A stretch of 63,493 nt of DNA, counting the filler, from Reticulomyxa filosa (Eukaryota > Protista > Foraminifera): the NCBI GenBank assembly GCA_000512085.1. It is 13 parts of 13 records of this genome, joined end to end, with 100 filler letters (N's around TTAATTAATTAA, not from the genome) between each part and the next. Parts side by side here need not be neighbours in the genome. Positions count along the whole stretch, not along the records: positions 53,222 to 55,068 come from ASPP01032428.1; 12 more parts are not named here. One strand, given 5' to 3'. A model generated the notes under the pieces. That model worked only from the letters and a program-made list of their open reading frames with translations. It was not told the DNA's origin and made no database searches. This document shows positions 9,650-60,203 of the stretch, piece by piece. The first letter of the stretch is position 1. Every line of letters begins with the position of its first letter. The position numbers and the translations under genes were made by a program.

Positions 9650-9749
9650 NNNNNNNNNNNNNNNNNNNNNNNNNNNNNNNNNNNNNNNNNNNNTTAATTA
9701 ATTAANNNNNNNNNNNNNNNNNNNNNNNNNNNNNNNNNNNNNNNNNNNN
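9650..9749. other. Artificial contig-joining spacer N44-TTAATTAATTAA-N44 (first of 12)
   Basis: Identical 100-bp spacer with stops in all six frames, also at 12487-12586, 26083-26182, 27586-27685, 35780-35879, 37713-37812, 42648-42747, 51190-51289, 53122-53221, 55069-55168, 58307-58406 and 60104-60203. Adjacency across spacers is not biological. Confidence 0.98.
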
Positions 9750-12485: not shown

Positions 12486-12586
12486 TNNNNNNNNNNNNNN
12501 NNNNNNNNNNNNNNNNNNNNNNNNNNNNNNTTAATTAATTAANNNNNNNNNNNNNNNNNNNNNNNNNNNNNNNNNNNNNNNNNNNN

Positions 12587-25800: not shown

Positions 25801-27685
25801 TACAGTATATTGCAAAAAAACTGCCATACCTAAATGGCATGAATTATATGAAGAGAATCGATTTTCTCCACGAAAAATAAAAATTTAAACTAATTTTTTA
25901 AAATATATACTAATCTTGTAGTTTTTAAATATGAAATTTGTTTTATAATAAGTTTTTTCTATGTTGATCAAAAATATGATTTTTTAAATGATTTTTAAAA
26001 ATTTCGAAGAAGTTCATATAAATTGAACCTGTATTGAAAATAAGAAATTTTTAAATATTCAAGCCACGTAGATACTTTTTTTNNNNNNNNNNNNNNNNNN
26101 NNNNNNNNNNNNNNNNNNNNNNNNNNTTAATTAATTAANNNNNNNNNNNNNNNNNNNNNNNNNNNNNNNNNNNNNNNNNNNNAAAAATCATCCAGCTAAT
26201 GCTTACAACAACCAAATCTATTTATCTCAAGCAATACAATAAACTTTTTTTTTAGCCAGCCCCTCAGCTTAAACAAGACTCATTTGTAACTTTGATATGT
26301 ACTGGCATTTGAAACTTATTGGAAATGCTTGATGTAAATAAATTTAACATACCAAATTGGCAATGTTCAAAATGTATATTATTCAAAGATTTTTTAAACA
26401 AGTTAAAAAGGTCAAACAAACAACTTCCGTACTTTAACATTTCTTTTTTGCGATTCATGAAAAAAAAAAGAAAAATTTTTATAAGAATTTGGTTGGCTAA
26501 ATTTTACAAAAAAAATTTAAAAAGCTGAAAATAGGTTTATTTGTCGACACAAAAGAAAACAAGCTGTTTTAACCAAAAAGAGAAGCGTTTTGGAGTGATC
26601 CTTTTTTGTTGTAGTTGTCAAACGTTTTACTTTTATTTCGAATCATTCTTTTGAGATAATGTTGTTGTTTATTCACGCTTTGGGATAATGGGACACAATA
26701 AAGCAGGCTACAGTAGATCGGATCTAAACACGAGAACTTTGCTGTCCACCGTTTTCTCTGCTATTGACAATTGGGATTGCAAGAGTGCGCAATTTTTTCT
26801 TTTTTGCAAAAATAAATATCCAATACAAACTGAAGCTGTCTGGACTGTCTTTTTCTTGTGTCAAACTTCTGACATCAAAAAAATTATCAATTATTTATTA
26901 TTAAGATAAATTGTTTATTTATCAATAACAGTAGTAACTTTAATTAAAAAAGTGTTACACTGTTTCCGAAGTCATTATATCACTTGAAAGACATTTATTC
27001 CATTGAACTCTTGTTTAATCGAATGAACACTGAAATCATTTGTTCCAGATAGTATTGTATCCCCACCACATCAAACTCATTTCTCATATCTATTGAAAAA
27101 ATACAATTCCACAAACTTTTTGTATTCAATTGCTGAGTTTTCACTGCGTGATTTTAAAATTAAAAATAAAAACATATCAATTGTTGTTTTAACATTAGAT
27201 TGTAATTATTCATTTTTGACATTTCCTTACATATGATATTCAATTCATTAATTTGTTTTTTCGATGATTTTGCTTTGTAATACTTCCTTTCACAGACAAT
27301 CACAATTACAATCATCCAATTATCCTTGAAAGAGATTGAAATTATTTTAAAATAGGATTGATTTTCATAATCATAGTTTATATGAATTGTCAAAACTAAA
27401 TTCAATATATAGTTTATCCAACCTTTCAAACTTTAAAGCAAAGAATAAGAACAGCTCAAATGATCCACACGAACTGCTTTATTATTTGATCCACCCAATG
27501 CTAAATGATCCATACGTATAAAACATGGTTAAACTCTTTTGCTCAAATTGAATGAAGGACACTTTCAAAAATACTTTGAATTACANNNNNNNNNNNNNNN
27601 NNNNNNNNNNNNNNNNNNNNNNNNNNNNNTTAATTAATTAANNNNNNNNNNNNNNNNNNNNNNNNNNNNNNNNNNNNNNNNNNNN

Positions 27686-28486: not shown

Positions 28487-31400
28487 TCAGAATTTTCCAC
28501 CACGTTGTTCTACAAGTAATTTTTGTTGATATGTTAAACCTTCTGTATTTTTCCAAATACTATTCTTCATAAATAAACTAAAGTTTTGCATACCTACTCG
28601 CCAGATACATTTCATTTTACTACTCTCAGTTATTTCATTTATCTTACTATTTTCACAACCCCATAATCGTATTGTATTATCTCTTGAATACGATATCATT
28701 GTTGAATTATCTGGTGATAATTGTATACCTTCAATAGCTCCAGTATGTCCTTCTAATAATTGAATTTGTTGTCCTGAAGCTATATCCCATATTCGAATAG
28801 TATGATCGGATGAATAAGATATAATTTTTGAATAATCAGGTAAAAATTGCACACCAAGTACATCACCTGAATATCCCTCAAATACTCGAATTAGTTCTCC
28901 AGATAACACATCCCATAATTTCATTGTTGTATCTATCGAAGCAGATAATATTTTTGTATCATCTGGAGAAAATTTCATTCCATATTCTCTTGGGGAATGC
29001 CCTTTCAACAACAAAAGTTGTTTTCCAGATGATGTATCACATACATAAAGCATATAATCTGATGTGCAAAATACAATTTTTGATTCATCTGCTGAAATTC
29101 TAACACCACTTATAGAGACATTATCTCCTGATACATTCCATAATTGAAGTCGTTTTCCAGATAATACATCCCATAATCTAATTGTATTATCACCAGAATA
29201 AGATATAAGTTTGGAACCATTTGATGAAAATGTCACTCCACTTACATATTTTGAATGACCTTCTAACAATTGCACTTGTTTTCCAGATAATACATCCCAT
29301 ATTATAATTGTACCATTAGATGAATAAGATACAATTTTAGAATTATCAGGAGAAAATTGAATTTCATTGACTGGTTGCAAATGACCTTCTAATACATGAA
29401 GTTTTTTTCCAGATGATGCATCTAATATTTCAATTACACGATCATATGAACATGCAAGTTTAGACAGATCAAAGGAAAATCGTACATTAAACATATGGTC
29501 TATGTCCATTTCCAATGTTTGAATTAGTCTTCCTGATTGTACATCCCAAAATTGAATTTTTTTGTCTCTTGAACATGATACAATTTTGGAACCATTGAAT
29601 GAAAATTGTGCACATATTATAGTGCACAAGTGTTCATCTGTTAATTGAATTTTTCTTTCTAAAGCAGTATCCCATATTCGAATTATTCCATCTTTTGAAT
29701 ATGATAAAATTTTGGAATCTTTTGGAAAAAATTCCAAACTAGTCACCTGATCCGAATATCCTTCTATTATTTGAAGTTGTTTCCCGGATAATACATCCCA
29801 TATTCGAATTGTGGAATCATTTGAGCTAGATACAATTCTAGAACCATCAGGAGAAAACCTTGCTGCTGTTATATGCCATGTATGACCTTGTAATATTTGA
29901 ATTGGTTTTTCATTTAATAAATCCCATATTCGAATTATAGTATCCCATGAATATGACAATAACTTTGATTCATCTGGTGATAATTGTATCCCAACTATAT
30001 TTTGAGTGTGTGCTCCTTCCAACATTTGAATTTGTTGACCTGATAATACATCCCATATTCGAATGGTTCTATCCCATGAACATGATATAACTTTTGTTCC
30101 ATCGGATGTAATTTGCATTCCATCTATTTTTTCTAGATGTCCTTTCAATATATGAAGTTTCTCACCTGACAATGTATTGTGTATTTGAATTGTATTAGTT
30201 AAACATGCAGCGAATTTGGAACCATCAGGTAATAATTGTATTACTTTTGCACATTCTGAATATAATTCAATTATGTAGATTTGTTTTCCAGAGAATATAT
30301 CCCACAATCGAATTGTGCTGTCTTTTGAAGCGGATACAATCTTAGAGTCATCAGGTAATAATTGTATTGTTTCTATAGAAGCTGTATGCCCTTCCAATAT
30401 TTGAATTTGTTCACCTGATTCTATATTCCATATTCGAATTGTACTATCTGCTGAACATGACACAATTTTTGATTCATCAGAAAAAAAGTATGCAGCAGTT
30501 ACTGGTCGTTTATGTCCTTCTAATAATTGGATTTGTCTACTTGATAATATGTCCCATATACGAATATATTTCTCGTTTGACCATGATATGAGTGTTAATC
30601 CATCTTCTGAAAATCGAACACCCTTTACATTCTTTCCTTCTTCACCAAAGTATGCAAATTCTCCAAAGTAAATGTTATTCATCAGTGCATTTGTAAAATT
30701 TACTTTGTTTAAACATGTTTGATAAAAACTAACATTAGATAAATTAGCATTAGTAAAATTTGTTCCTTCAAAAAAAGCATGATCTAAAATTGCATGAGGA
30801 ATTTTGATATTATTCCAATTTCTATAATTCATGTTTATATTTGCTGAATTAAGTATTGTGATTGCATTTGCTGCTGCAATACTAACATTTTCATTATTTT
30901 TTGATGCTTCAATAATTCGAAATAATCTTGATTTTAAATTTGTATATATTGAATTTGTATCGTGAATTCTCTCAGCAATAAACTGAATAATCTCCAATTC
31001 TTCATTTAATAATTTAAAATTAATAGATAATTTTGCAATATCTACTTCAAATTGTTGTTGGAATTGTTGATTTGTAATATTACCAATAATATTTGGTTTC
31101 CATGAAATAATATCAAATATAATTTTTTGTGCTGCGTAATATTCTTGACATAATTTATGTAAAAATTGATATCTGTTATTACCAACTCTTCTTAATACAT
31201 ATTTAGCAATATTATCACCATCAAAATATTTTGCCCAAATATCTCTTTTATTTTCCATTAAAATATTCTCTATATCTTTTTTATTTTCATTTTCTATTTC
31301 TGGACCTAATTTACTTACAATTTCCTCTTCATTATTCTCAAATTCCGACTCAACTATAACCTGATTTCCTTCATAAAATATTTCAAAGCCTAAATCAAGA

Positions 31401-33965
31401 CAATATTGTTTTAGTGTAAATTTGATTTTATTGATATTCATTTGAATGCGTAATTCTGCCAATTTAGAAATAATATTTTGACAATGGATATCAATCCATT
31501 GATTAGTAAACACTTCATAAACTTGTGCTTTAGAAATCCTGCTTCCTATATCATATTGTTTTACCAATGATGGTAATACAGTTAAAATAAGTTGAAGGAG
31601 AAAAGGTTCTTCTATCATTTTTTGTAAATTTCGATAATTATTCAATGTTTCTTCATATTTTCGGGCTGTCCAGTCATCATTAGAATTATTGTTATTTTTA
31701 GATTTTATTTTTGCAAATTTTTCAATATAATAATGCATTTGTTGTTTTGTGAATGGCCATAAATATATCATTGATGTATTATTTCGATTTGTACCAATTA
31801 AATTAGTATTGATATCTTCATCATTTAATACATGACTTCGACAAGTAATAATTACTTTTGCATTCCATTGATTAAATTAAAACGGTTATAAAAATACTTA
31901 ACATTATTATTTTTATTATTTTTACTATATTTATCAAATATTTCATCAAAACCATCCATGATAAATACAAAAGATATTTTTTCACAAATTGCATTCATTA
32001 TTTCTTTATTAATATTTTTACTTTGTAATGTTTGTAAAATAATATCTTTTTCATTATTTTTGTTATAAACTTTAGGGAAAAAAATATAAACTGGCATTTC
32101 TTTTTTTGAATCTAACGTATAATTATTCCATAACATTTCTTCTAAATGACGACAAAATATGCTTTTTCCTGATCCTGATTTTCCTTGAATGGCCATTATT
32201 TTGTTTTCATTTTTCTTTTCTTCTTCTTTTCCTTTTTCTAGAAATTCAATCACATGTTGATAACCATCAAACGTATCGTTTTTTTCATTATCATCACCGT
32301 CTATATGTGGATAACGATTTGCTTGTAATGGAATATATGTTTCAAGTGCTTGTGAAATAGTTATATCTTCTTCCATTTCTTGCTTTCTTGATTCTTGTAA
32401 TAATAATGCAAAATCAGAACAACTTGCTGGATTTTTGTCTCCAATGATATATCTTTTATAATATTCATATAAAATTACATAAATAGCTTTTCCTTTTACT
32501 TTTTCTGGAGTGAAATTACAAAGTTGTTCATATACAAATTGTGCTATTTTTAATGATACAATACTATTGACTTCTAATTCACTTTTTTTTACCAATTGAG
32601 GTGCTTTCAATATCCCAATATCTAAATGTGATTTATAACGACCTACTAATTTTTGTATTCCTTTGTCATCAATCCATTCACAAATTACATCATTAATTTT
32701 AGTCAATGTTTCATCACTTGCTTGTTTTAAATCTTCTTCTTCTGGGTTATTAGGTTTCCATGCACGAATGTGTTCATAAAATAAATGACTTAATTTTGGA
32801 TTCTCTATTGAAGTGTATGCTGCCAATGTAGTATAATTTTTTAATGTTGCTTGCATTTCCACATATACATCATGTTTTGGAACATATAATTTAATATTAT
32901 GAAATCTATGATGTGTCTTTGATTGTCTTTCAAAAAAATTTTTATCTTCAGATACGATCAAATTAAATTGTTCCGCTTTCTTCATTACTGTCACTGCTGT
33001 TTGCAGTTTGATTTTGTTATCACACAAAATAGTAAATCTTCCAACATCAAATACTTGATTATAATCTCCTTTATAATCATGTTGAATCTTTTCCAATAAT
33101 CGCATACTATCTTTTACATTGGGTGGTTTTACAACTGTTATCAAATATTTTTGTAACTCAGACACTAAATTGATTATCTCATTGCTCATCATTGCTTTTT
33201 TACTTCGTGTAATTAAATCTTCCAAACTCGTTGCATGTTGTCTTATCTGTTCAGCTTTCAATTGATAAGATAATCCCGATTTAATTGGATAAAAACATTG
33301 ATAATGATTATCCTTCACAGAAGTTAAATTATTACTTGAACTGATGGAATGTTCTGAATTAAAAAGCATTGCCTTTACAATTGATGTGACAGTTGATTGT
33401 CTACAATCTGGACAACAATAGGATGTTTTATCCGCATGAAATGAGATATTCACAAAACCAAGACTCACCCATACCGGAAACTTTGCTTTTGAAGCTAAAC
33501 AATCTTGATTTGTACAATAACCTTGCAAATTAATCCCAGGATCAATGTGTCCAATCTCTGCCTTTTCATCTTCTTTTTGTAATTCTTCTGACTTCTGTTC
33601 CACTTCCATTGCGGTATTCTTCATGTTTGTATTTCCCAGTACAATAGAGTATGTATTGTTTGTGATAAAAAGAAAAAACATTCAACTTTATGTTCGATCT
33701 GTTCTGCAACATTTCGATTCATCAATGAATTTGTGATTTGTTCGATCACAACTGACATATTTCCGTCATTTTGTACGAGTTGTTTTCTCAACTCTTCTTC
33801 TTTAATCACGTCACCATATAATCTTATCAATGTTTTCATTTTTGCTTCATATTTCGCTGTTTTTAATTCGCTCTGCATACCTCCTATAAGTTTTATACGT
33901 TCGTTATAACTGTGGCTCAATGTTTTCGTATCAGCGTGAGCAAATACACGAAATATCTCTTGGGC
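28487..33965 (-). CDS. NLR-like STAND protein: CUE-like + Zn-ribbon + RelA/SpoT-like nucleotidyltransferase + NACHT + pentapeptide repeats + 16 WD40 repeats
   Basis: Walker A GKSGSGKS, Walker B FVFIMDGFDEI, VIITCRS, PFLL and YQFLHK..QEY motifs, pentapeptide tract AFFEGTNFTNANLSNVSF, and 16 countable WD40 units. One missing A at about 31872 joins ORFs 31852-33681 and 28487-31771. Further 5' exons may extend to about 34450. Confidence 0.9.
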
Positions 33966-35549: not shown

Positions 35550-35879
35550 GTCAAAAAAAAAAAAAAAAAAAGCACAAAGCAAAATGTGACAATTGCATTG
35601 ATGTCATCATATTAATAATATGAAGATAGTTTTTGATAACTGTAATAAGTTGGTGATGACAGTAACAATAATGATAATAATGATGAAGATGTTGATCATT
35701 ATTGTTATTGTTATCACCTGTGTGTATGTGTGTGTATGTGTGTGTGTGTGTGTGTTTGCGTACATGAGTTTCTAATGTTNNNNNNNNNNNNNNNNNNNNN
35801 NNNNNNNNNNNNNNNNNNNNNNNTTAATTAATTAANNNNNNNNNNNNNNNNNNNNNNNNNNNNNNNNNNNNNNNNNNNN

Positions 35880-37712: not shown

Positions 37713-37812
37713 NNNNNNNNNNNNNNNNNNNNNNNNNNNNNNNNNNNNNNNNNNNNTTAATTAATTAANNNNNNNNNNNNNNNNNNNNNNNNNNNNNNNN
37801 NNNNNNNNNNNN

Positions 37813-42647: not shown

Positions 42648-42747
42648 NNNNNNNNNNNNNNNNNNNNNNNNNNNNNNNNNNNNNNNNNNNNTTAATTAAT
42701 TAANNNNNNNNNNNNNNNNNNNNNNNNNNNNNNNNNNNNNNNNNNNN

Positions 42748-45704: not shown

Positions 45705-47143
45705 TCAAATGTTTTGTAAAACGATGGCGGAAGCACCTCCTCCGCCATTACAAATTCCAGCGACGCCATATCTTCCTTTTTTAAGTTTTAAAGTAGTGAT
45801 GAGTGTACACAAAATTCGAGCACCACTGCAACCCAAAGGATGCCCCAAAGCAATGGCACCCCCAAGGGCATTAACACGTTCCATAGGGATTTTTAAAATA
45901 CGAGCATTTGCAACTCCAGCAACGCTGAAAGCTTCATTTATTTCAAACCAATCGTTTTCGTTTAAATCACTCACGTCATGAATTCCTGCGTGTTTCAAAG
46001 CCTTTGGAATGGCCAAAGATGGAGTTGCAGGAAAGCGAACAGGCTCTTGAGCGGCATCTGCGAAGCCAGCAATTTTCGCTAATAATTTGGAATGGCATTT
46101 CAATTCTTTTACTTTTTTGCCGTTGATCAAAACCAAAGCAGCCGCCCCATCAGACAAAGAGCTGCTATTGGCCGCAGTGACAGTATAAATGGGATGATTG
46201 TCTTTGTCTTTGGCAATATTGGGATGGCTTTTGTAGGCATCATTTGTGATTGGAAAAGCGCCTTTCAATTGGCGCATTTTCTCTTCATTCAATTTGGATA
46301 TCCCCTCGTCAATCGACACTATATCTTTTGTTTTGGTTTTGGGGTTCAAAATAGGGATCGGAAGGATCTCATTGTCAAATGCATGTTCTTTGTGTGCCAA
46401 CGCTGCTTTTTGAATGACAGCACCGCAAAATCGTCTTGTTCTTCGCGCGATATTTTATATTCTGCGGCACACCATTCTGCGCACATACCCATACTCATAT
46501 TCACCATACTGTCCCACAGTCCGTCTTTTGTAAGTCCATCCACCATCGTTTGATCACCAAAACGAACACCAAAGCGATAATTTCTTTTTTTTTTTTTTTT
46601 TTTTTTTAAAGTCATATTATTTGAATTGTAAAACATTTGACTAAGAGACCAAAAAAAAAAAAAAAAATTAAAAATGAGAAAGAAGAGACGAAAAGAGAAG
46701 GAGGGAATGATATTACAAAGATTTTTTTTTTTAACTTGCACATAATATGGTGCGTTGGACATGGATTCCATTCCTCCAGCGATACATATTTCATTTTGTT
46801 GAAGTGCTAAACTTTGAGCGGCTAAGGACACTGCTTTCATCCCACTTGCACATACCACATTCACTGTTGTTGCAGGCACTTTGTCGCTTATCCCGCTTTT
46901 TATACTTGCTTGTCTTGCCGGGTTCTGCCCCAAATTCGCTTGCAATACGTTGCCCATAAATACCTCATCCACTTGACTAGGCTTTATTTCGGCTTTTTCC
47001 AGGGCTCCTTTTATCGTTATTGCACCCAGTTCCACTGCACTTAAACTTGATAAACTCCCACCAAATGAACCCAAAGGCGTTCGAACCGCTGCGAGGATAA
47101 ATACATCGCTGTCTTTTATCTCAATTTGCTTTTCTTCAGACAT
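45705..47143 (-). CDS. Acetyl-CoA C-acetyltransferase (biosynthetic thiolase, ERG10/ACAT-like)
   Basis: VNVVCASGMKA (Cys), GGMESMSNAPY, NEAF, GHPLGCSGAR (His) and GICNGGGGASA (Cys). One intron at about 46584-46735 and a 1-nt indel in an A-run near 46410. Confidence 0.96.
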
Positions 47144-47557
47144 ACTAAAAGTATTGCAAGTTAAAAATTAAATTACAATAAGTATCCCCTTTAAGTTCAC
47201 TTTTTTGCTACAAAAAAATTGTATCCACAGCTTGCGTGAAACATTTATTTCCTATTCATTGCTCTTCAGTAACCCACAGAAAAGAGTTTTCGAAAAGATC
47301 CTCAATGAGTTTTAGTAAATAGGCTACGATGTGCTGTCTTTTTGTTAAGTGCAGCAAAAATATGAAAGTTATTTTAAGCACTGCTTTTTTTTTTTTCCGT
47401 TTGACTGTTTCGCAAGGAAATATATTATGAAAAGCTAAAAAAAAAAAACTCAATATGGAAAGAATGATAGGCATATTGACGTCTATTTTGTCTTGAATTT
47501 GGCAATTTGCGCATTTTTATGGACTCTAGAGTAGTGAGTCTTGCATCGTAATTTAGT

Positions 47558-51189: not shown

Positions 51190-51289
51190 NNNNNNNNNNN
51201 NNNNNNNNNNNNNNNNNNNNNNNNNNNNNNNNNTTAATTAATTAANNNNNNNNNNNNNNNNNNNNNNNNNNNNNNNNNNNNNNNNNNNN

Positions 51290-53121: not shown

Positions 53122-53221
53122 NNNNNNNNNNNNNNNNNNNNNNNNNNNNNNNNNNNNNNNNNNNNTTAATTAATTAANNNNNNNNNNNNNNNNNNNNNNN
53201 NNNNNNNNNNNNNNNNNNNNN

Positions 53222-53286
53222 GGTTCGACGCGACGGTGCTGCCGCAACTGCACGTGCTCGCCTGGGGCAACGAACGCGGGGTTTGA
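53222..53286 (+). CDS. queE: Bacterial 7-carboxy-7-deazaguanine synthase, 3' end
   Basis: FDATVLPQLHVLAWGNERGV* matches the characteristic QueE C-terminus (PQLH..xWGN.RGV). Codons are high-GC. Confidence 0.8.
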
Positions 53287-53394
53287 GGACAGTTTATGGC
53301 GGCTCCCAGAAGAAGCTGCGTGGAGAGGACGCGATAGTGCGAGTGTGGCAAATCAAGATAGGGTTGATACCAAGCGAATGCGAGGCGCCGCACA

Positions 53395-54000
53395 ATGGCC
53401 AGTAAGCGAGGAATTTTTTGCATAGAAACATCGCATTGGAACGACGGAGATGCAGAGCAACCATCCGTTGAGCGGCTCTTGGGTCTTATTGAGAGCACTC
53501 AGCGGGTGCCTTACATCCATCGGGATTTTTCAACAAAGGACGAACTTGAGTTTCTGTTAACTCAGGCTACGCAAAAGAAATACGATGCGTTTCCGATAAT
53601 ATATTTGGCGTCCCATGGCGGAGATAGGCGTCTTTGGGTTCGTAAGAAAGTGAATACGAATTTGGTTTCAAGCTTTATCGAACTAGAGGAAATCGCCAAC
53701 ATATTACGAGGTCGAGGTCGTAATAGGATTTTGTTCATCTCGGCGTGTGGCGTGATGAATTGCCATGCAAGCCATCTGAAAAAGTTCGTTAAGGACACTG
53801 GGGTGAAGGCACTTATTGGTTATCGGCGTGATGTTTCGTGGATCGAATCTGCTCAGTTGGAATTGGGTTTGCTTTCTGAACTAGCGAATCGCTCGAACGC
53901 GCATCTACAGTCGATAAGGGCAGCATTTCGATCTATTGGCGACGCGAATCGATCTCTGATTAAGAGTCTGCGGCTTCGATCGATGCCTGATCTTCTTTAG
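53395..54000 (+). CDS. Bacterial caspase/CHAT-fold (clan CD) putative Cys protease, DUF6642-like
   Basis: Intronless 201 aa with IIYLASHG (His-Gly) and ILFISAC (Cys) after beta-strands, then ALIGY..DVSW, the typical CHAT-like spacing. N-terminal IFCIE..W. Confidence 0.7.
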   Translation: MASKRGIFCIETSHWNDGDAEQPSVERLLGLIESTQRVPYIHRDFSTKDELEFLLTQATQKKYDAFPIIYLASHGGDRRLWVRKKVNTNLVSSFIELEEIANILRGRGRNRILFISACGVMNCHASHLKKFVKDTGVKALIGYRRDVSWIESAQLELGLLSELANRSNAHLQSIRAAFRSIGDANRSLIKSLRLRSMPDLL

Positions 54001-54050
54001 TGAGAAGTGAGTTCTTCTTGGCATTGGTTCTTCAGGCTATGAAGTGCCTT

Positions 54051-54734
54051 TCATGGTAGATTCGCGCCCACATCCGATACAGCACGCGCAAAAGCCCTGA
54101 GAGTCCAAAGAAGATCACGAAATAGCGTGCGATCAATAATGATGGGATCGCCTACAGCCCAGCGAGGTTGTTGAGCGTTTTCACCGGCATTTTTTAGTCG
54201 ATTGAACGCAGTTTGGTTCCAACTTGATAGCCCATGGGCAACCAAGTTTCTGACAGTAAATGCTCGCACCAGCTCAAGCTTGCCTCCATCAACATCTGCC
54301 CAAGTTCGGCCTTCGAGAGCAAGATACATTTGTCCCCATACTTCAACGCTCGTTGATCGTATGTAAGCTTCGGCTGCTTCATCGGCGGGCGCTACTGGAT
54401 TAAGGCTTGGGAAATTCCCCCTAGGGACCTGACGAACTCCGATCGCATGCTCGATCAAGTTTCTACCATGCTCCTCCACGAGGCCAGTGTAGCTTGAAAG
54501 AAGCATAGAATATAAACGGTGATGATCTTGTAATGCGGCTTGGTAATTGAGTAACGAGCAATGGAATTCAGTTACTCCAGTCGGATCTACGATTACAACG
54601 TTGGCGGGATCTGCAATATGTAGTGTAGTCCAGCGAGTGTGCTCAGCTGCTAACGCGGCTTCTGCGGCAATCCAGAATCTCGTTAGTTCTCCCCATTTGT
54701 CCCAAACCGGAAATCTTGTCCAAGGCATGTTCAT
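54051..54734 (-). CDS. Bacterial HEPN-superfamily protein (putative RNase)
   Basis: Intronless 227 aa, mostly helical, with an Rx4H motif VRNLVAHG near the C-terminus and an upstream helix carrying Glu (YTGLVEEH). Confidence 0.65.
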   Translation of the reverse strand: MNMPWTRFPVWDKWGELTRFWIAAEAALAAEHTRWTTLHIADPANVVIVDPTGVTEFHCSLLNYQAALQDHHRLYSMLLSSYTGLVEEHGRNLIEHAIGVRQVPRGNFPSLNPVAPADEAAEAYIRSTSVEVWGQMYLALEGRTWADVDGGKLELVRAFTVRNLVAHGLSSWNQTAFNRLKNAGENAQQPRWAVGDPIIIDRTLFRDLLWTLRAFARAVSDVGANLP

Positions 54735-54870
54735 GCTTTCGTTGATTGTCGATGCGTCGAAGTGTGCCCACAGGGGATCCTAGCGAGTGTGAGGTTCCAG
54801 ACAAGAATAGTATTCGCCTCGTGGTGCTCGCCTTTAGTCGCTCCCGGCGATGCCACTCAGGGTTTGATGG

Positions 54871-54905
54871 AGCTTCAGAGCAAAACTTTTGAATCTGCTG
54901 AAGCT
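54871..54905 (-). terminator. Inverted repeat just downstream of the amidohydrolase stop (possible terminator)
   Basis: AGCTTCAG...CTGAAGCT 8-bp stem. No clear U-tract. Confidence 0.3.
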
Positions 54906-54910
54906 AAAGA

Positions 54911-55068
54911 CTACCCCCGCAACACCACCCCCGCCTTCGCGTCCGTGAGCCGCCCCTGTTCCCAGGTGATGGCGCCGTTCACCACCGTGTATTCGACGCC
55001 GCGGGAGGGCATGACGATGCGCTTGGCGCCGCCGGGGAGGTCGTGGCGGCGTTCGCCGTGGTTGCTGG
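54911..55068 (-). CDS. Bacterial N-acyl-D-amino-acid deacylase (amidohydrolase), 3' end
   Basis: HDLPGGAKRIVMPSRGVEYTVVNGAITWEQGRLTDAKAGVVLRG* is the typical D-aminoacylase C-terminus. Third codon positions are almost all G/C. Confidence 0.8.
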
Positions 55069-58000
55069 NNNNNNNNNNNNNNNNNNNNNNNNNNNNNNNN
55101 NNNNNNNNNNNNTTAATTAATTAANNNNNNNNNNNNNNNNNNNNNNNNNNNNNNNNNNNNNNNNNNNNAAAAAAAAAATAGAATAATAAAGAAAAAAAAA
55201 AGGGGACATAAAAAAGAAAAAGGAAAAAGAAAGAAAATAAGAAAATAGAAAAAAAAAATAGAAAAAAAAAAAGAATAATAGTTATAAGGAAAAAAAAAAA
55301 ATAAAATGAAAAAACAAATGAAAGAAAAAAAAGAAAAAAAGAATTACAATTGTATTTATTTTTTTGTAAAAATTATTGATATCCAGTTCGTGGATAGAAG
55401 AAGTTAAGTTTTATCTTTTTTTTGTTTGTGTTTGTTTAAGAAACAAGTCTTAAAATATACTTAACATTATAGATATTGGCTCGATGATTCAAAGGCAAGC
55501 TGGAATACTTTGGCGAATAACTTCAACAATGATCCAAAATTGCAATTCAATTTGTTTATGTTATTCTTCAATTTGCTGAGTTGATTATCAAGAATCATTT
55601 TTATTATAACATTCAATTTAGCTGCTGTTAACTATCCACCACTTTCGCCAACGCATGGAATATATTAATATAGATGAATAAATCGTTTGCAGATGGCTTC
55701 TATATACATGAATGCAATCCATCTTATTGTGTTTCAAGATATTAATAATACATCTGACATTCTCGAATGATGCACTAGACACGCAAGATATTACTGAAAG
55801 TGACATCGCAAAAAAAAAAAAGCACAATTACCGGTAACAACAGTATCACCATCCAGCTCAATTGTTTCAAAAATTCATCCTAATATTGGCTATCGAACAA
55901 AGGCGGTAGTGTGAACAATAACCTGCGCTTCCAATCCAGTTCTGGGATCGCCTTCAAATGACAATTAGCTTTTCCATGATGTCATAACGAAGCAACTCAA
56001 GCCGAATGACGCTATTCAAATCTATTGATTAAGAAAAAGGCCAGCCAATTGAAGTAAGTTATGAACAAGTAGCTACCTTCCTCTTTTTTAAATTGTCACC
56101 AATTAATGTGTTATTTCTGTATAGATTCAAAACAACCAAAAGTTTGTCCAAATGAAACAGTTAGTGATTACTAATATTTTGTTATGTGCGGAGTGTTATG
56201 TAATACGTATCCATCGTCGATTTTGTCTTGGATGAGTCGGCAGCAGATGATATTTGCACTATCTATGACCCCTCAAATTGATTATATTTGATTGTTCGTA
56301 GAAGCACAATTTGAAGATGAGACAATTGATATTTACACTGCCTCCAATTTATTAATACCATTGTCAAGCAAATGTACTTATTCCACTGGAAAAAAGCGTG
56401 AATATAAGATTATTTGATAATTTGTAAAAAACAAAAAATCAGGATCGCGCTCAACGACCTTGTGATCAGCTTTACAAATTTGCCAATTGATATACGAAAA
56501 GCAATCCACAATTACATTGCCGGTGTTAAAATACAATCTTCATCACGAGTGGCTGCCAAGGATAATATAGACTGTGTGCTCTATTTGAAGGTTATGTTGT
56601 TTTTATCATATTTTAAGTTGTTGTAATATATCTTACTCAAAACAATGTGAGCATTGATGTTTTCATTGTAGAATAATTTATTTTAGATTTGAAATGAAAG
56701 AAAGAGCAAAGAGGAAGAACAAGAAGAAAAATAACAAGAAGGACATGAAGAAAAACAAGAACAAGAAAAAAAATAAGAAGAAAAAGAAAAAGAAGAAATA
56801 ACGTGAAAAACAAGAACAACAAGAAAAATAACAAATGGCGATAAATCGCGCAAGAAGTATACTTACCAAGAGAAAAAAGGAGTAATGTGAGAATAGGGTC
56901 AATATAACAAATCCCTTATTAACATATGTTCATCAACACTATAAGTGATTATTGATGAATTTACGGAAATGAGACACAAATGGCAACGAATTATTATGTC
57001 CATTCAATTCACTCCAAATCAACAATGTATATAATCAGCCAAATATTGATCGTCTCCGTTTACGTATATTTGTGATTACGTTATTTGTGACCCTCCCCTC
57101 AGATGTCCACACAACAAAGATGCATCGAAGCAGTTCCAAGATACAATTGATGTCGATTTGGTAAATAAATAATAAAATCGTAGAATACTGCTGTCAACTA
57201 AGATTGATATGAAATGATTCGAATACTTTTGAAAGAAGATCGAAGTTAAAAACCATTGTGTCTTTGTTTCTAAACAATTTTCATTAATTTGTTGTTTATT
57301 TTTTTTTGTTTTGTTTTTACAACAACTAGAATATACTAAATTTCACAAACCGTGAAGATAATGGAGCCGCAAATGAAGAAGAAGGAGAAAACAAATATAA
57401 AAATGATGAAGCAAATACTGATGTCTTGGTGATAGTAGGAAGCGTCACAAAAACTGCAAAGAAGATTTGTTTGCAAACGATGTCCAAATAATAATAATAA
57501 TATAGTGACCCTTCCATGATAAACAATATCAATAACAGCGAATAATATCAATAAAAAAGACACATGAATAGATATGGACCGGGAAACAATATTGGGATTA
57601 TCCTTTACACTCAATCAAATACATATTGGTCGATCTTTTCCAAGGCGACATTTGAATCAAGAAAATAATTGTCGTCTTTCTCACAATGCACGTGCTATCA
57701 ATGCCATATCTCTTCCTTGTGGTAATGCCGATGTTTTCAATGGTCAATCGTCTCGCCAATACACGAACATTGTCCATCATTCCGTGTCGAAGCAATGTCG
57801 ATCCCATATTATGTCCAGAGACAAAGCGACAGCTCAACACATTATACAATGATCAAACCATTGTATTAAATGTGAATAAATACAAGACCACGAATACTGA
57901 CTGCCAATTGGTTGTCATTGCTATTGGCTCCATTCGTCGCTATTTCGTCATGGACACTTGAGATAAGGTTGATATCATTGTCTAATCTTGGAGTCACAAT

Positions 58001-58406
58001 TGTATCAACGTATCTCCTCTTTCTTCTTCTTCGCTTCTTGCATTGGTTGCTGAAAGACGCTTTCGATTGTATCATCATCATTGTCGTCATCATGAGATTC
58101 AATCTGTATTGCAAAGCGTGTTGCTGCACCAGTAGAAGCAAATCAAATGCACGTATTATGGACTCGGAATGCACACAGACAGCCCGGAAATGAAAAACAG
58201 CATTGCCACAATATACAAAATTGTACAATGTTGTCCGTCCAATCCCCTCGATAATGGACTACGATGCAACAAGGACACATTGGTTCTTTCATCTTTTGTT
58301 TTTTTTNNNNNNNNNNNNNNNNNNNNNNNNNNNNNNNNNNNNNNNNNNNNTTAATTAATTAANNNNNNNNNNNNNNNNNNNNNNNNNNNNNNNNNNNNNN
58401 NNNNNN

Positions 58407-59103: not shown

Positions 59104-60203
59104 TCTAATGGTGCTTTCTTTGGGTATGGGGGTTACGAAATCGCGTTAGTGACAGTTTTCCAAACTAAAAAAATTTAAACTCTAAAATTCAATGTTAAGA
59201 AAAATTGCCAAACTCAGTCGAGACCAAAAAAAATGGAGAAGTGTCACATTTGACAATTTGAACGTTTGCAACTTCGGAATGGCCAACTTTTTGAAGCAAG
59301 ATAATTTATTTAATTTTTTATGATTATGCTCTAATACAATGGAGCTGTTAATTACCTATTTTCCGCGTATCGAAGTTTCATCATACTTTTTTGAGAGAAT
59401 TGTTCAACTTCAGTCCTTTCATGAATAAATTTATTGCTCTTACCTTGGTTTCAACAAAAAAAAAAACTGCAACCACCGTCATTTCGTTAAAGATTCTAAA
59501 ATGAAGAATTATGAAAAAGATATCTTGAACGCGTTTAGATTGCAGCCTGATGAAGAGAATACGAAAATACTAAAAGGTAAGTCAACAATATCTACCAAAT
59601 GAACCGCAACAAAACGCATTTTTTTTTTTTTTTACTTCAAACAAGTAAATAACAGTTTTTTTTTATTTGCACAATTAAAGAGATATTTAGAAACGCCTTC
59701 ATTGGGACATGGTCAGAGTTAAAGAATGTAAGGAGTGAATGGATTTTAAAACAAAACGAGGCAACCAAAACGAAAAAACAAGTTGATGAAAATCGTAATG
59801 GGAACAGGTGCAACACTTTTCTTTGCTTCGGCAAATTCTAAAAAATAAAGTATAATGTTATGTTATGAAATAGATTTTTGTTATGCAATTGCTATTTTGG
59901 GAAAACGTTGAAACAACCATTGTCCACTGCAATAACAAAAACAGTAAGGAAGCAAAAATGTATTGAAAGCATCAGAACCGAATCAGATGCAAGCAATGGT
60001 CGTATCGATTTTCAGAGAAGAAAGCTCTATGGAGGAATGAACACTGATGGCAAATCAATTCCACAAACTGATGGACCACGCTTAGTTCATTTTTTTTTTT
60101 TTTNNNNNNNNNNNNNNNNNNNNNNNNNNNNNNNNNNNNNNNNNNNNTTAATTAATTAANNNNNNNNNNNNNNNNNNNNNNNNNNNNNNNNNNNNNNNNN
60201 NNN

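Follow-up and report, generated by a model that had tools for sequence, protein, structure and literature searches.

Two convergent genes, for a predicted DUF6642 caspase/CHAT-fold protease and a rare HEPN-type protein, on a bacterial contig in the Reticulomyxa filosa assembly

The window analysed in this study is a stretch of 63,493 nucleotides from the genome assembly of the foraminiferan Reticulomyxa filosa (GCA_000512085.1), and its subject is an islet of 1,624 bp with low guanine plus cytosine content (GC), 53287-54910, which lies between the convergent 3' ends of two genes. The whole finding is inside a single piece of the window, the contig at 53222-55068 (ASPP01032428.1; 1,847 bp, GC 0.514). 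Two convergent open reading frames (ORFs), here named ORF A and ORF B, fill the islet, and no further ORF of any size was found in its 1,624 bp. The features of the contig are listed here from left to right.

53222..53286, plus strand: 3' end of queE (7-carboxy-7-deazaguanine synthase), the last 20 codons and the stop codon (53224-53286), GC 0.68
53287..53394, no strand: left islet edge, upstream of ORF A, 108 bp, GC 0.565
53395..54000, plus strand: ORF A, 201 amino acids (aa), DUF6642, with LASHG (His74) and ISAC (Cys118)
54001..54050, no strand: spacer between the convergent stop codons, 50 bp
54051..54734, minus strand: ORF B, 227 aa, with R162-N-L-V-A-H167-G, E87 and H89
54735..54910, no strand: right islet edge, upstream of ORF B, 176 bp, GC 0.517
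54911..55068, minus strand: 3' end of an Amidohydro_3 / D-aminoacylase-type amidohydrolase gene, 51 codons and the stop codon (54911-55066), GC 0.715

The true start of ORF B may be the second ATG, at 54728. The two flanking gene ends have a GC of 0.677 (queE) and 0.715 (amidohydrolase), with 0.81 and 0.94 at the third codon position (GC3), while the values are 0.464 (GC3 0.46) for ORF A and 0.494 (GC3 0.41) for ORF B. An earlier sequence-only reading of this DNA had already placed two convergent ORFs correctly at this position, and its observation that their GC is lower than that of the flanks (0.46 and 0.49 against 0.68 and 0.72) was right.

The two predicted enzymes

ORF A matches the Pfam family DUF6642 (PF20347) over residues 6-157 with 49.1 bits (E 6.6e-13; cut-off 27 bits), and 20 DUF6642 relatives were found in a search of 5.8 billion clusters. 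Both His74 and Cys118 are kept in 21/21 aligned sequences, and all 21 also match DUF6642. CHAT was matched by 11 of these 21 sequences (best E 3.2e-5) and Peptidase_C14, weakly, by four (best E 0.069); ORF A itself gave no match to CHAT (PF12770) or Peptidase_C14 at E<=1, and one relative (L001) reached 20.6 bits on the CHAT/C14 test, short of the cut-off of 24. In the AlphaFold2 (AF2) model, with a predicted local distance difference test score (pLDDT) of 89.2 and a predicted template modelling score (pTM) of 0.88, the strands and helices follow the order of a caspase, with the His just past the strand 68-72 and the Cys just past the strand 112-115. Foldseek returned 152 matches to this model at E<=1e-3, the best of which was the SAVED-CHAT filament 8tl0 (E 1.6e-6, TMq 0.62-0.65), with CED-3, caspases 3, 4, 7 and 9 and the TPR-CHAT of Craspase among the other top matches. 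A sequence search of the PDB with the profiles of ORF A and ORF B gave chance-level rows only. The Atlas clusters nearest to ORF A belong to DUF6642 and are most frequent in Planctomycetota and Bacteroidota, and no literature on DUF6642 was found in the library searched. By sequence and model, ORF A has a caspase/CHAT fold and is a predicted cysteine protease.

Among characterised relatives of the fold, ORF A resembles the clan CD proteins SAVED-CHAT (8tl0) and TPR-CHAT of Craspase in its caspase topology, with the His after strand 3 and the Cys after strand 4, but it consists of a protease core and a short helical tail, and unlike those proteins it lacks a sensor domain, whether SAVED, TPR or another; also unlike the clan CD systems, the islet holds no CRISPR, CBASS, TIR or gasdermin gene beside it. 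According to the cited part of 10.1101/2024.10.24.620036, the caspase-like proteases known from bacteria become active through a partner signal and then cleave many proteins or a specific effector; the same part describes the type IV Thoeris caspase-like effector and PCaspase as stand-alone immune proteins that cleave many proteins once activated. ORF A is likewise a predicted stand-alone bacterial caspase-like protein. However, these proteases have, as far as the cited part of 10.1101/2024.10.24.620036 describes them, a TIR or SAVED-CHAT partner and a C-terminal ligand-binding domain, while the islet contains no such partner and no TIR gene, and ORF A matches no PADLOC model.

For ORF B, an alignment of 14 sequences, down to 21% identity, has invariant positions that include E87, H89, R162, N163, H167 and G168. 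This motif pattern is the RNxxxHG of HEPN type, joined by an upstream acidic/His motif, and the family additionally has a conserved N-terminal WxRFPxWDxW segment of its own. Profile comparisons gave hints in the same direction: one relative (L007) matched HEPN_RiboL-PSP (PF18735) with E 2.8e-5 and 24.6 bits, under the cut-off of 28.4, another (P0028) carries a precomputed PF18735 annotation, the top Atlas cluster for ORF B is named RiboL-PSP-HEPN (score 0.96, 202 shared features), and the PADLOC model RTasHEPN was weakly matched by 4/14 members of the family (best E 0.0022). The AF2 model of ORF B (pLDDT 93.2) is mostly helical, and the top rows obtained with VIA, an aligner independent of Foldseek, are mostly HEPN proteins, namely sacsin HEPN (3o10, Z 8.7), an AbiA entry (8oz7, 8.4) and the SO_3166 toxin (5yep, 7.9), although a Z below 13 can be reached by chance in helical proteins and the maximum for ORF B is 8.7. 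The next rows are TT1696 (1ufb, 7.8), AF_0298 and the HEPN domain protein 4nqf (Z 7.8-7.6), followed by two more HEPN toxins (Z 7.1) and then by Csm6, Csx1, HepS, LsoA and RnlA.

Taking motif, profile hints and fold list together, ORF B is probably a RiboL-PSP-HEPN-type predicted RNase. Besides the chance range of the VIA scores, two results count against this assignment: ORF B itself matched nothing in Pfam, and thus no Pfam HEPN model, nor in NCBIfam or PADLOC, and Foldseek returned nothing for its model at E<=1e-3. The family is very rare, with six relatives found by single sequence and nine by profile among 5.8 billion proteins searched.

The Ribo L-PSP-HEPN proteins are a bacterial family with an Rx4-6H motif, distantly akin to AbiF/AbiD, and are fused to endoRNase L-PSP or placed in an operon with ParB, with mRNA as the predicted target (Anantharaman et al. 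2013, PMC3710099, in the part cited). ORF B shares the Rx4-6H motif, as RNxxxHG, and its nearest Atlas cluster has this name; it differs in staying under the Pfam cut-off, in being a single chain of 227 aa with neither an endoRNase L-PSP fusion nor a ParB neighbour, and in the WxRFPxWDxW segment and the E87/H89 motif of its family. With the HEPN-MNT pairs (SO_3166/SO_3165; 5yep, 7ae2, 8xdj) ORF B has in common the small HEPN with Rx4H (VIA Z 7.1-7.9, within the range that chance can give), but no MNT nucleotidyltransferase or other small partner gene lies beside it.

The motifs named in the sequence-only reading, LASHG/ISAC and RNLVAH, are present, and their His74 and Cys118, and their R162, N163 and H167, are invariant across the relatives (21 and 14 sequences, respectively). 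Its proposal that ORF A has a caspase/CHAT fold and a His/Cys dyad is borne out by Pfam, the AF2 model and Foldseek, which agree, and its proposal of a HEPN-like ORF B by the conserved Rx4H, the profile hints and the VIA list.

The insert, its flanks and the origin of the contig

The left flank matches TIGR03365 at model positions 219-238 (E 4.3e-6), and its 20 aa are 100% (L039) and 95% (L035) identical to the C-termini of full-length QueE proteins, which score 344 and 341 bits on TIGR03365 (cut-off 206). On the right, the assignment to Pfam Amidohydro_3 comes from the orthologues L025 and L026 and not from the 51-codon end itself; three genomes to which the relatives of ORF A led, those of Rhodospirillales bacterium URHD0017, Reyranella sp. 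and Vineibacter terrae, have genes with 88-92% identity to this end. The whole contig was searched as DNA against 101 genomes, a sample of the taxonomic family to which the Reyranella genome (G002) belongs, here called the host family. DNA of the amidohydrolase end is present in 91/101 of them, at best 97% identical over 158 nt, and the ten best family relatives of its protein are 92-100% identical. The flanks match proteins of the Reyranella/Vineibacter family at 94-100% identity. The islet part of the contig matched DNA in 0/101 of the same genomes.

Two of the relatives have an empty site. The queE and amidohydrolase ends are direct convergent neighbours there, 182 bp apart in G419 (L039) and 101 bp apart in G427 (L035), and therefore we regard the 1,624 bp as an acquired insert. 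DNA similarity to the relatives ends right at both stop codons (contig positions 1-61/66 and 1690-1847), because of which the foreign segment can be set to 53287-54910, the limits that the sequence-only reading had given. In 8/10 of the closest loci queE is absent within 1.5 kb and the amidohydrolase is followed by other genes, e.g., an IS1182 transposase fragment or an RraA-family gene; the junction is thus variable in the host family. The spacers of the two empty sites are alike neither to one another nor to the islet. The 101-bp spacer of G427 (L035 1658-1758) contains a perfect inverted repeat of 33 nt that resembles either a bidirectional terminator or a repeat element. At the borders of the islet no direct repeats, tRNA-like element or Rfam element were found, and an Rfam scan of the islet contig gave zero matches. 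A promoter and terminator scan of the islet gave nothing over the expectation from shuffled sequence, with no terminator-like site in the 50-bp spacer. The donor of the islet was probably a genome of lower GC, in one or two transfer events.

Further observations concern queE in this family. The queE 3' end occurs twice per genome, about 790 bp apart, in G426 (C1:5720995-5721843) and G428 (C50:88554-89402), which may mean that queE-like genes stand in tandem or that the end was duplicated. In the four whole genomes that carry relatives of ORF A (G001-G004) there is no match to TIGR03365 or to the 20-aa queE end, and other genes, i.e., a pyridoxal phosphate (PLP) decarboxylase and a DUF1835/DUF3658 protein, lie downstream of the amidohydrolase orthologue. 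TIGR03365 (B. subtilis-type QueE) is present in other members of the family, in which the type or the presence of QueE varies.

Two soil metagenomes, from two studies, contain contigs of 151 nt that cover 53986-54275 and 54782-54932 with one to two differences each (two for 54782-54932, which spans the right edge). Because they span these joints, the islet exists at this place in environmental bacteria and the contig is no chimera there. Sequence comparison points to a Reyranella/Vineibacter-family alphaproteobacterium as the most likely source of the contig, present either as contamination or in association with the eukaryote that was sequenced, and the contig would have entered the eukaryote assembly by contamination or via an associated bacterium.

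On this part of the locus the sequence-only reading was largely right. It had called the flanks queE and D-aminoacylase 3' ends, as TIGR03365 and the Amidohydro_3 orthologues now indicate, and it had postulated an acquired insert at a convergent junction, with which the empty sites of 101 and 182 bp and the strong GC contrast agree. The host search by flanks that it had proposed leads to Reyranella/Vineibacter-family genomes (up to 97% in nucleotides and 100% in amino acids), and the proposed comparison of the interval across relatives gave empty sites in G419 and G427 and other genes in 8/10 closest loci, that is, a variable site. As to its "cassette between housekeeping genes", the gene ends are real; what it had missed is that they are truncated, with 65 and 158 bp left, and belong to a stray, foreign bacterial contig.

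Spread, proposed roles and rival readings

A tblastn search found 12 plasmid records with a relative of ORF B, from Sphingomonas, Sphingobium, Burkholderia, Paraburkholderia, Ralstonia and Rhizobium. On the Sphingomonas plasmid pSH (L011, 5428-8454) the relative, 43% identical, is accompanied by an uncharacterised gene of 93 aa and is co-directional with, and placed between, two traD genes and a type IV coupling-protein gene, divergent from the relaxase gene traA. This setting is a Ti-type transfer module, with the HEPN-type gene within the Dtr (DNA transfer and replication) operon. On a metagenome contig (L005) the relative follows a TraG/VirD4 gene and a ribbon-helix-helix (RHH) gene. On the Burkholderia, Paraburkholderia and Ralstonia replicons the relatives stand amid small hypothetical genes and helix-turn-helix (HTH) regulators, with a higB-2 toxin gene in one case. 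The GC of the relative is lower than that of its own locus in L005, L006 and L008. On two plasmids the small genes that directly follow the relatives are not related to one another, so no conserved partner of ORF B is seen. Several copies are broken: the one on Sphingobium pYBL2-5 (L013) is interrupted by a Tn3 transposon, those in L006 and L008 are split, and fragments lie on a Rhizobium replicon (L016). The ORF B family occurs in 1/401 alphaproteobacterial genomes.

The ORF A family is found in 6/101 genomes of the host family, patchily and at a different locus for each copy, with different flanks; in 3/6 of these copies the GC is well under that of the flanks. Across 401 sampled Alphaproteobacteria genomes PF20347 scored over its cut-off in one, the centre genome itself. 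The neighbours of ORF A relatives are chemotaxis, kinase and metabolic genes, and the relative in Vineibacter (L003/L030) is frameshifted. Neither viral contig scans nor a tblastn of GenBank phage found relatives of ORF A or ORF B in phage.

The placement of the ORF B family on plasmids and in transfer operons suggests a role in mobile-element conflicts. Because its relatives ride plasmids, some of them inside traD-traG transfer operons, ORF B is probably a conflict gene that travels on mobile elements and would act in abortive infection, exclusion or addiction. By analogy to other HEPN proteins it would dimerise, and it would cleave RNA via R162/H167, with growth arrest as the consequence. 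ORF A would be a Cys/His endopeptidase without a fused sensor domain. Their convergent orientation makes ORF A and ORF B separate transcription units, and we lean towards the reading that they are independently acting mobile conflict genes, on a contaminant bacterial islet. It is close to one option of the sequence-only reading, "two stand-alone defence genes in a variable hotspot", from which the stand-alone genes and the variable site are retained as the best fit, while the defence function of both genes is something that we only infer.

Some results weigh against this reading. As to a defence role, the models of PADLOC-DB 2.0 gave no family for either ORF A or ORF B at E<=1, and among the relatives there were chance-level matches for the ORF A family and the weak RTasHEPN ones alone for the ORF B family. 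Known defence genes are absent beside most relatives, whose neighbours are mainly metabolic, signalling and conjugation genes; one relative of ORF A (L017) adjoins an Abi_C gene. Membership in a known defence system was thus not found, and the neighbours of the relatives are mostly not defence islands. As to contamination, it is a reading based on composition and similarity, and no sequencing run with at least half of the contig's words was found. The arrangement around L017 and the scope of the co-occurrence tallies, both taken up below with the pairing of the two genes, weigh in the same direction.

It is unlikely that the two genes are not conflict or defence genes at all, ORF B being an accessory of conjugative transfer in the traD-traG module and ORF A a regulatory or housekeeping peptidase, both stranded here as perhaps decaying cargo. 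The transfer operons in which relatives of ORF B lie, the chemotaxis, kinase and metabolic genes around those of ORF A and the failure of both proteins to match PADLOC would all fit it, as would the broken relatives (frameshifted in L003, split in L006 and L008, cut by Tn3 in L013, fragments in L016). Yet the catalytic-type motifs are invariant in both families, and this speaks for enzymes kept by selection; according to the cited part of PMC3710099, the HEPN families with Rx4-6H consist largely of conflict-system RNases; and a patchy, low-GC gene at an ever-different locus is typical of accessory conflict genes.

Improbable, in our estimate, is a single module, co-acquired as an abortive-infection/toxin system, in which the HEPN RNase is switched on or off through cleavage by the DUF6642 protease, or in which a common trigger serves both; the protease-gated pair that the sequence-only reading had put forward is of this kind. 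The two genes are adjacent, 50 bp apart, within one 1.6-kb insert with a common low GC (0.46, 0.49) foreign to the host, the junction of the ORF A end and the ORF B end recurs in a soil metagenome, and protease cascades are known in bacterial immunity (10.1101/2024.10.24.620036, cited part). But convergent genes are two transcription units, and the two families never co-occur in the loci or genomes examined. Six-frame translations of 17 loci were searched with hidden Markov models (HMMs) of both families, and the ORF A family was found in 0/10 loci with an ORF B relative (in one of these, L005, the downstream sequence is only about 400 bp long), the ORF B family in 0/5 distinct loci with an ORF A relative. 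In searches of whole genomes the ORF B family was found in 0/4 of those that have an ORF A relative. These tallies leave out the contigs of the closest homologues, P0001 (ORF B type) and P0007 (ORF A type), at 64-66% identity. Of the host-family genomes, 6/101 have the ORF A family and 0/101 the ORF B family, including 0/6 of the carriers of the ORF A family. The check for co-occurrence and proximity to defence genes, which had been suggested beforehand, therefore came out negative on both sides (0/10 and 0/5 loci; no known defence genes beside most relatives).

The point that comes nearest to a pair is L017 (3618-6444), on a plasmid of Brevibacterium spongiae, where a distant DUF6642 gene lies near an Abi_C gene (PF14355) on the same strand. 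The Abi_C protein has the motif RNDQGSGH (Rx6H), and a transposase ORF of 401 aa stands alone between the two genes; it may be a disrupted pair of a HEPN-type and a caspase-like protein, and the arrangement hints at a link between protease and HEPN. Against this, hhalign showed no relation between the Brevibacterium Abi_C protein and ORF B (probability 0.15). One could go further and hypothesize a new class of two-gene abortive-infection modules, in which a DUF6642 minimal caspase supplies the proteolytic half and the HEPN RNases are interchangeable, of the RiboL-PSP type here and of the Abi_C type on the Brevibacterium plasmid, with the protease gating the RNase or with both gated together on phage or plasmid entry. 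We hold this to be highly improbable. No literature that joins the CHAT domain, HEPN and anti-phage activity was found in the library searched.

The rest of the window and significance

The window, 1-63493, is a chain of 13 contigs with 12 identical artificial linkers between them, as listed below.

Form of each linker: N44-TTAATTAATTAA-N44 (44 N, TTAATTAATTAA, 44 N)
Linkers 1-6: 9650-9749, 12487-12586, 26083-26182, 27586-27685, 35780-35879, 37713-37812
Linkers 7-12: 42648-42747, 51190-51289, 53122-53221, 55069-55168, 58307-58406, 60104-60203
53122..53221, no strand: precedes the islet contig and ties it to an AT-rich contig on the left
55069..55168, no strand: ties the islet contig to the next AT-rich contig

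With contigs chained by identical linkers, neither the order of the pieces nor which of them are neighbours has any biological meaning. The two contigs that adjoin the islet contig have a GC of 0.32, and most pieces of the window have 0.28-0.41. Because of its GC of 0.514 against 0.32, its bacterial flanks and the linkers on both sides, the islet contig is foreign to its scaffold neighbours, and since no eukaryotic sequence is attached to it, it is very unlikely that it was transferred into the genome of the eukaryote. That the contig is true eukaryotic DNA, gained by a recent horizontal transfer of a bacterial fragment, is hardly credible: the assemblers did put it in the scaffold, and a source sequencing run for a coverage check was not found, but both of its ends are ends of bacterial genes with 92-100% amino acid identity to free-living relatives, its joints are artificial linkers with no eukaryotic sequence attached, near-identical pieces occur in soil metagenomes, and the GC is 0.51 versus 0.32 in the neighbours.

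The long ORFs in the other pieces are of eukaryote type, and include a NACHT-WD40 protein, a choline-transporter-like protein and a segment of a voltage-gated channel, as well as a C-terminal segment of a protein kinase and a thiolase. The NACHT-WD40 protein lies at 28490-33681, minus strand, on a contig with a GC of 0.29, as two abutting long frames (609 and 1,129 aa) with NACHT and then many WD40 repeats, and is an NLR/STAND-like protein of the eukaryote host. The thiolase at 45708-47167, minus strand, is split into two overlapping frames, Thiolase_N at 46349-47167 and Thiolase_C at 45708-46454, which could be due to an intron, a frameshift or an assembly error.

The contig, and perhaps others that are joined by linkers too, is bacterial and should not carry eukaryotic annotation. 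The findings do not yet amount to a new system; rather, each of the two genes is newly placed within a known superfamily. The empty and filled sites together make a clean natural case of a 1.6-kb islet set between two convergent genes. DUF6642, an uncharacterised family of about 200 aa with an intact His/Cys pair and no sensor, is among the smallest candidate bacterial caspase-like enzymes, and the family of ORF B is a very rare branch of HEPN that turns up inside plasmid transfer operons.

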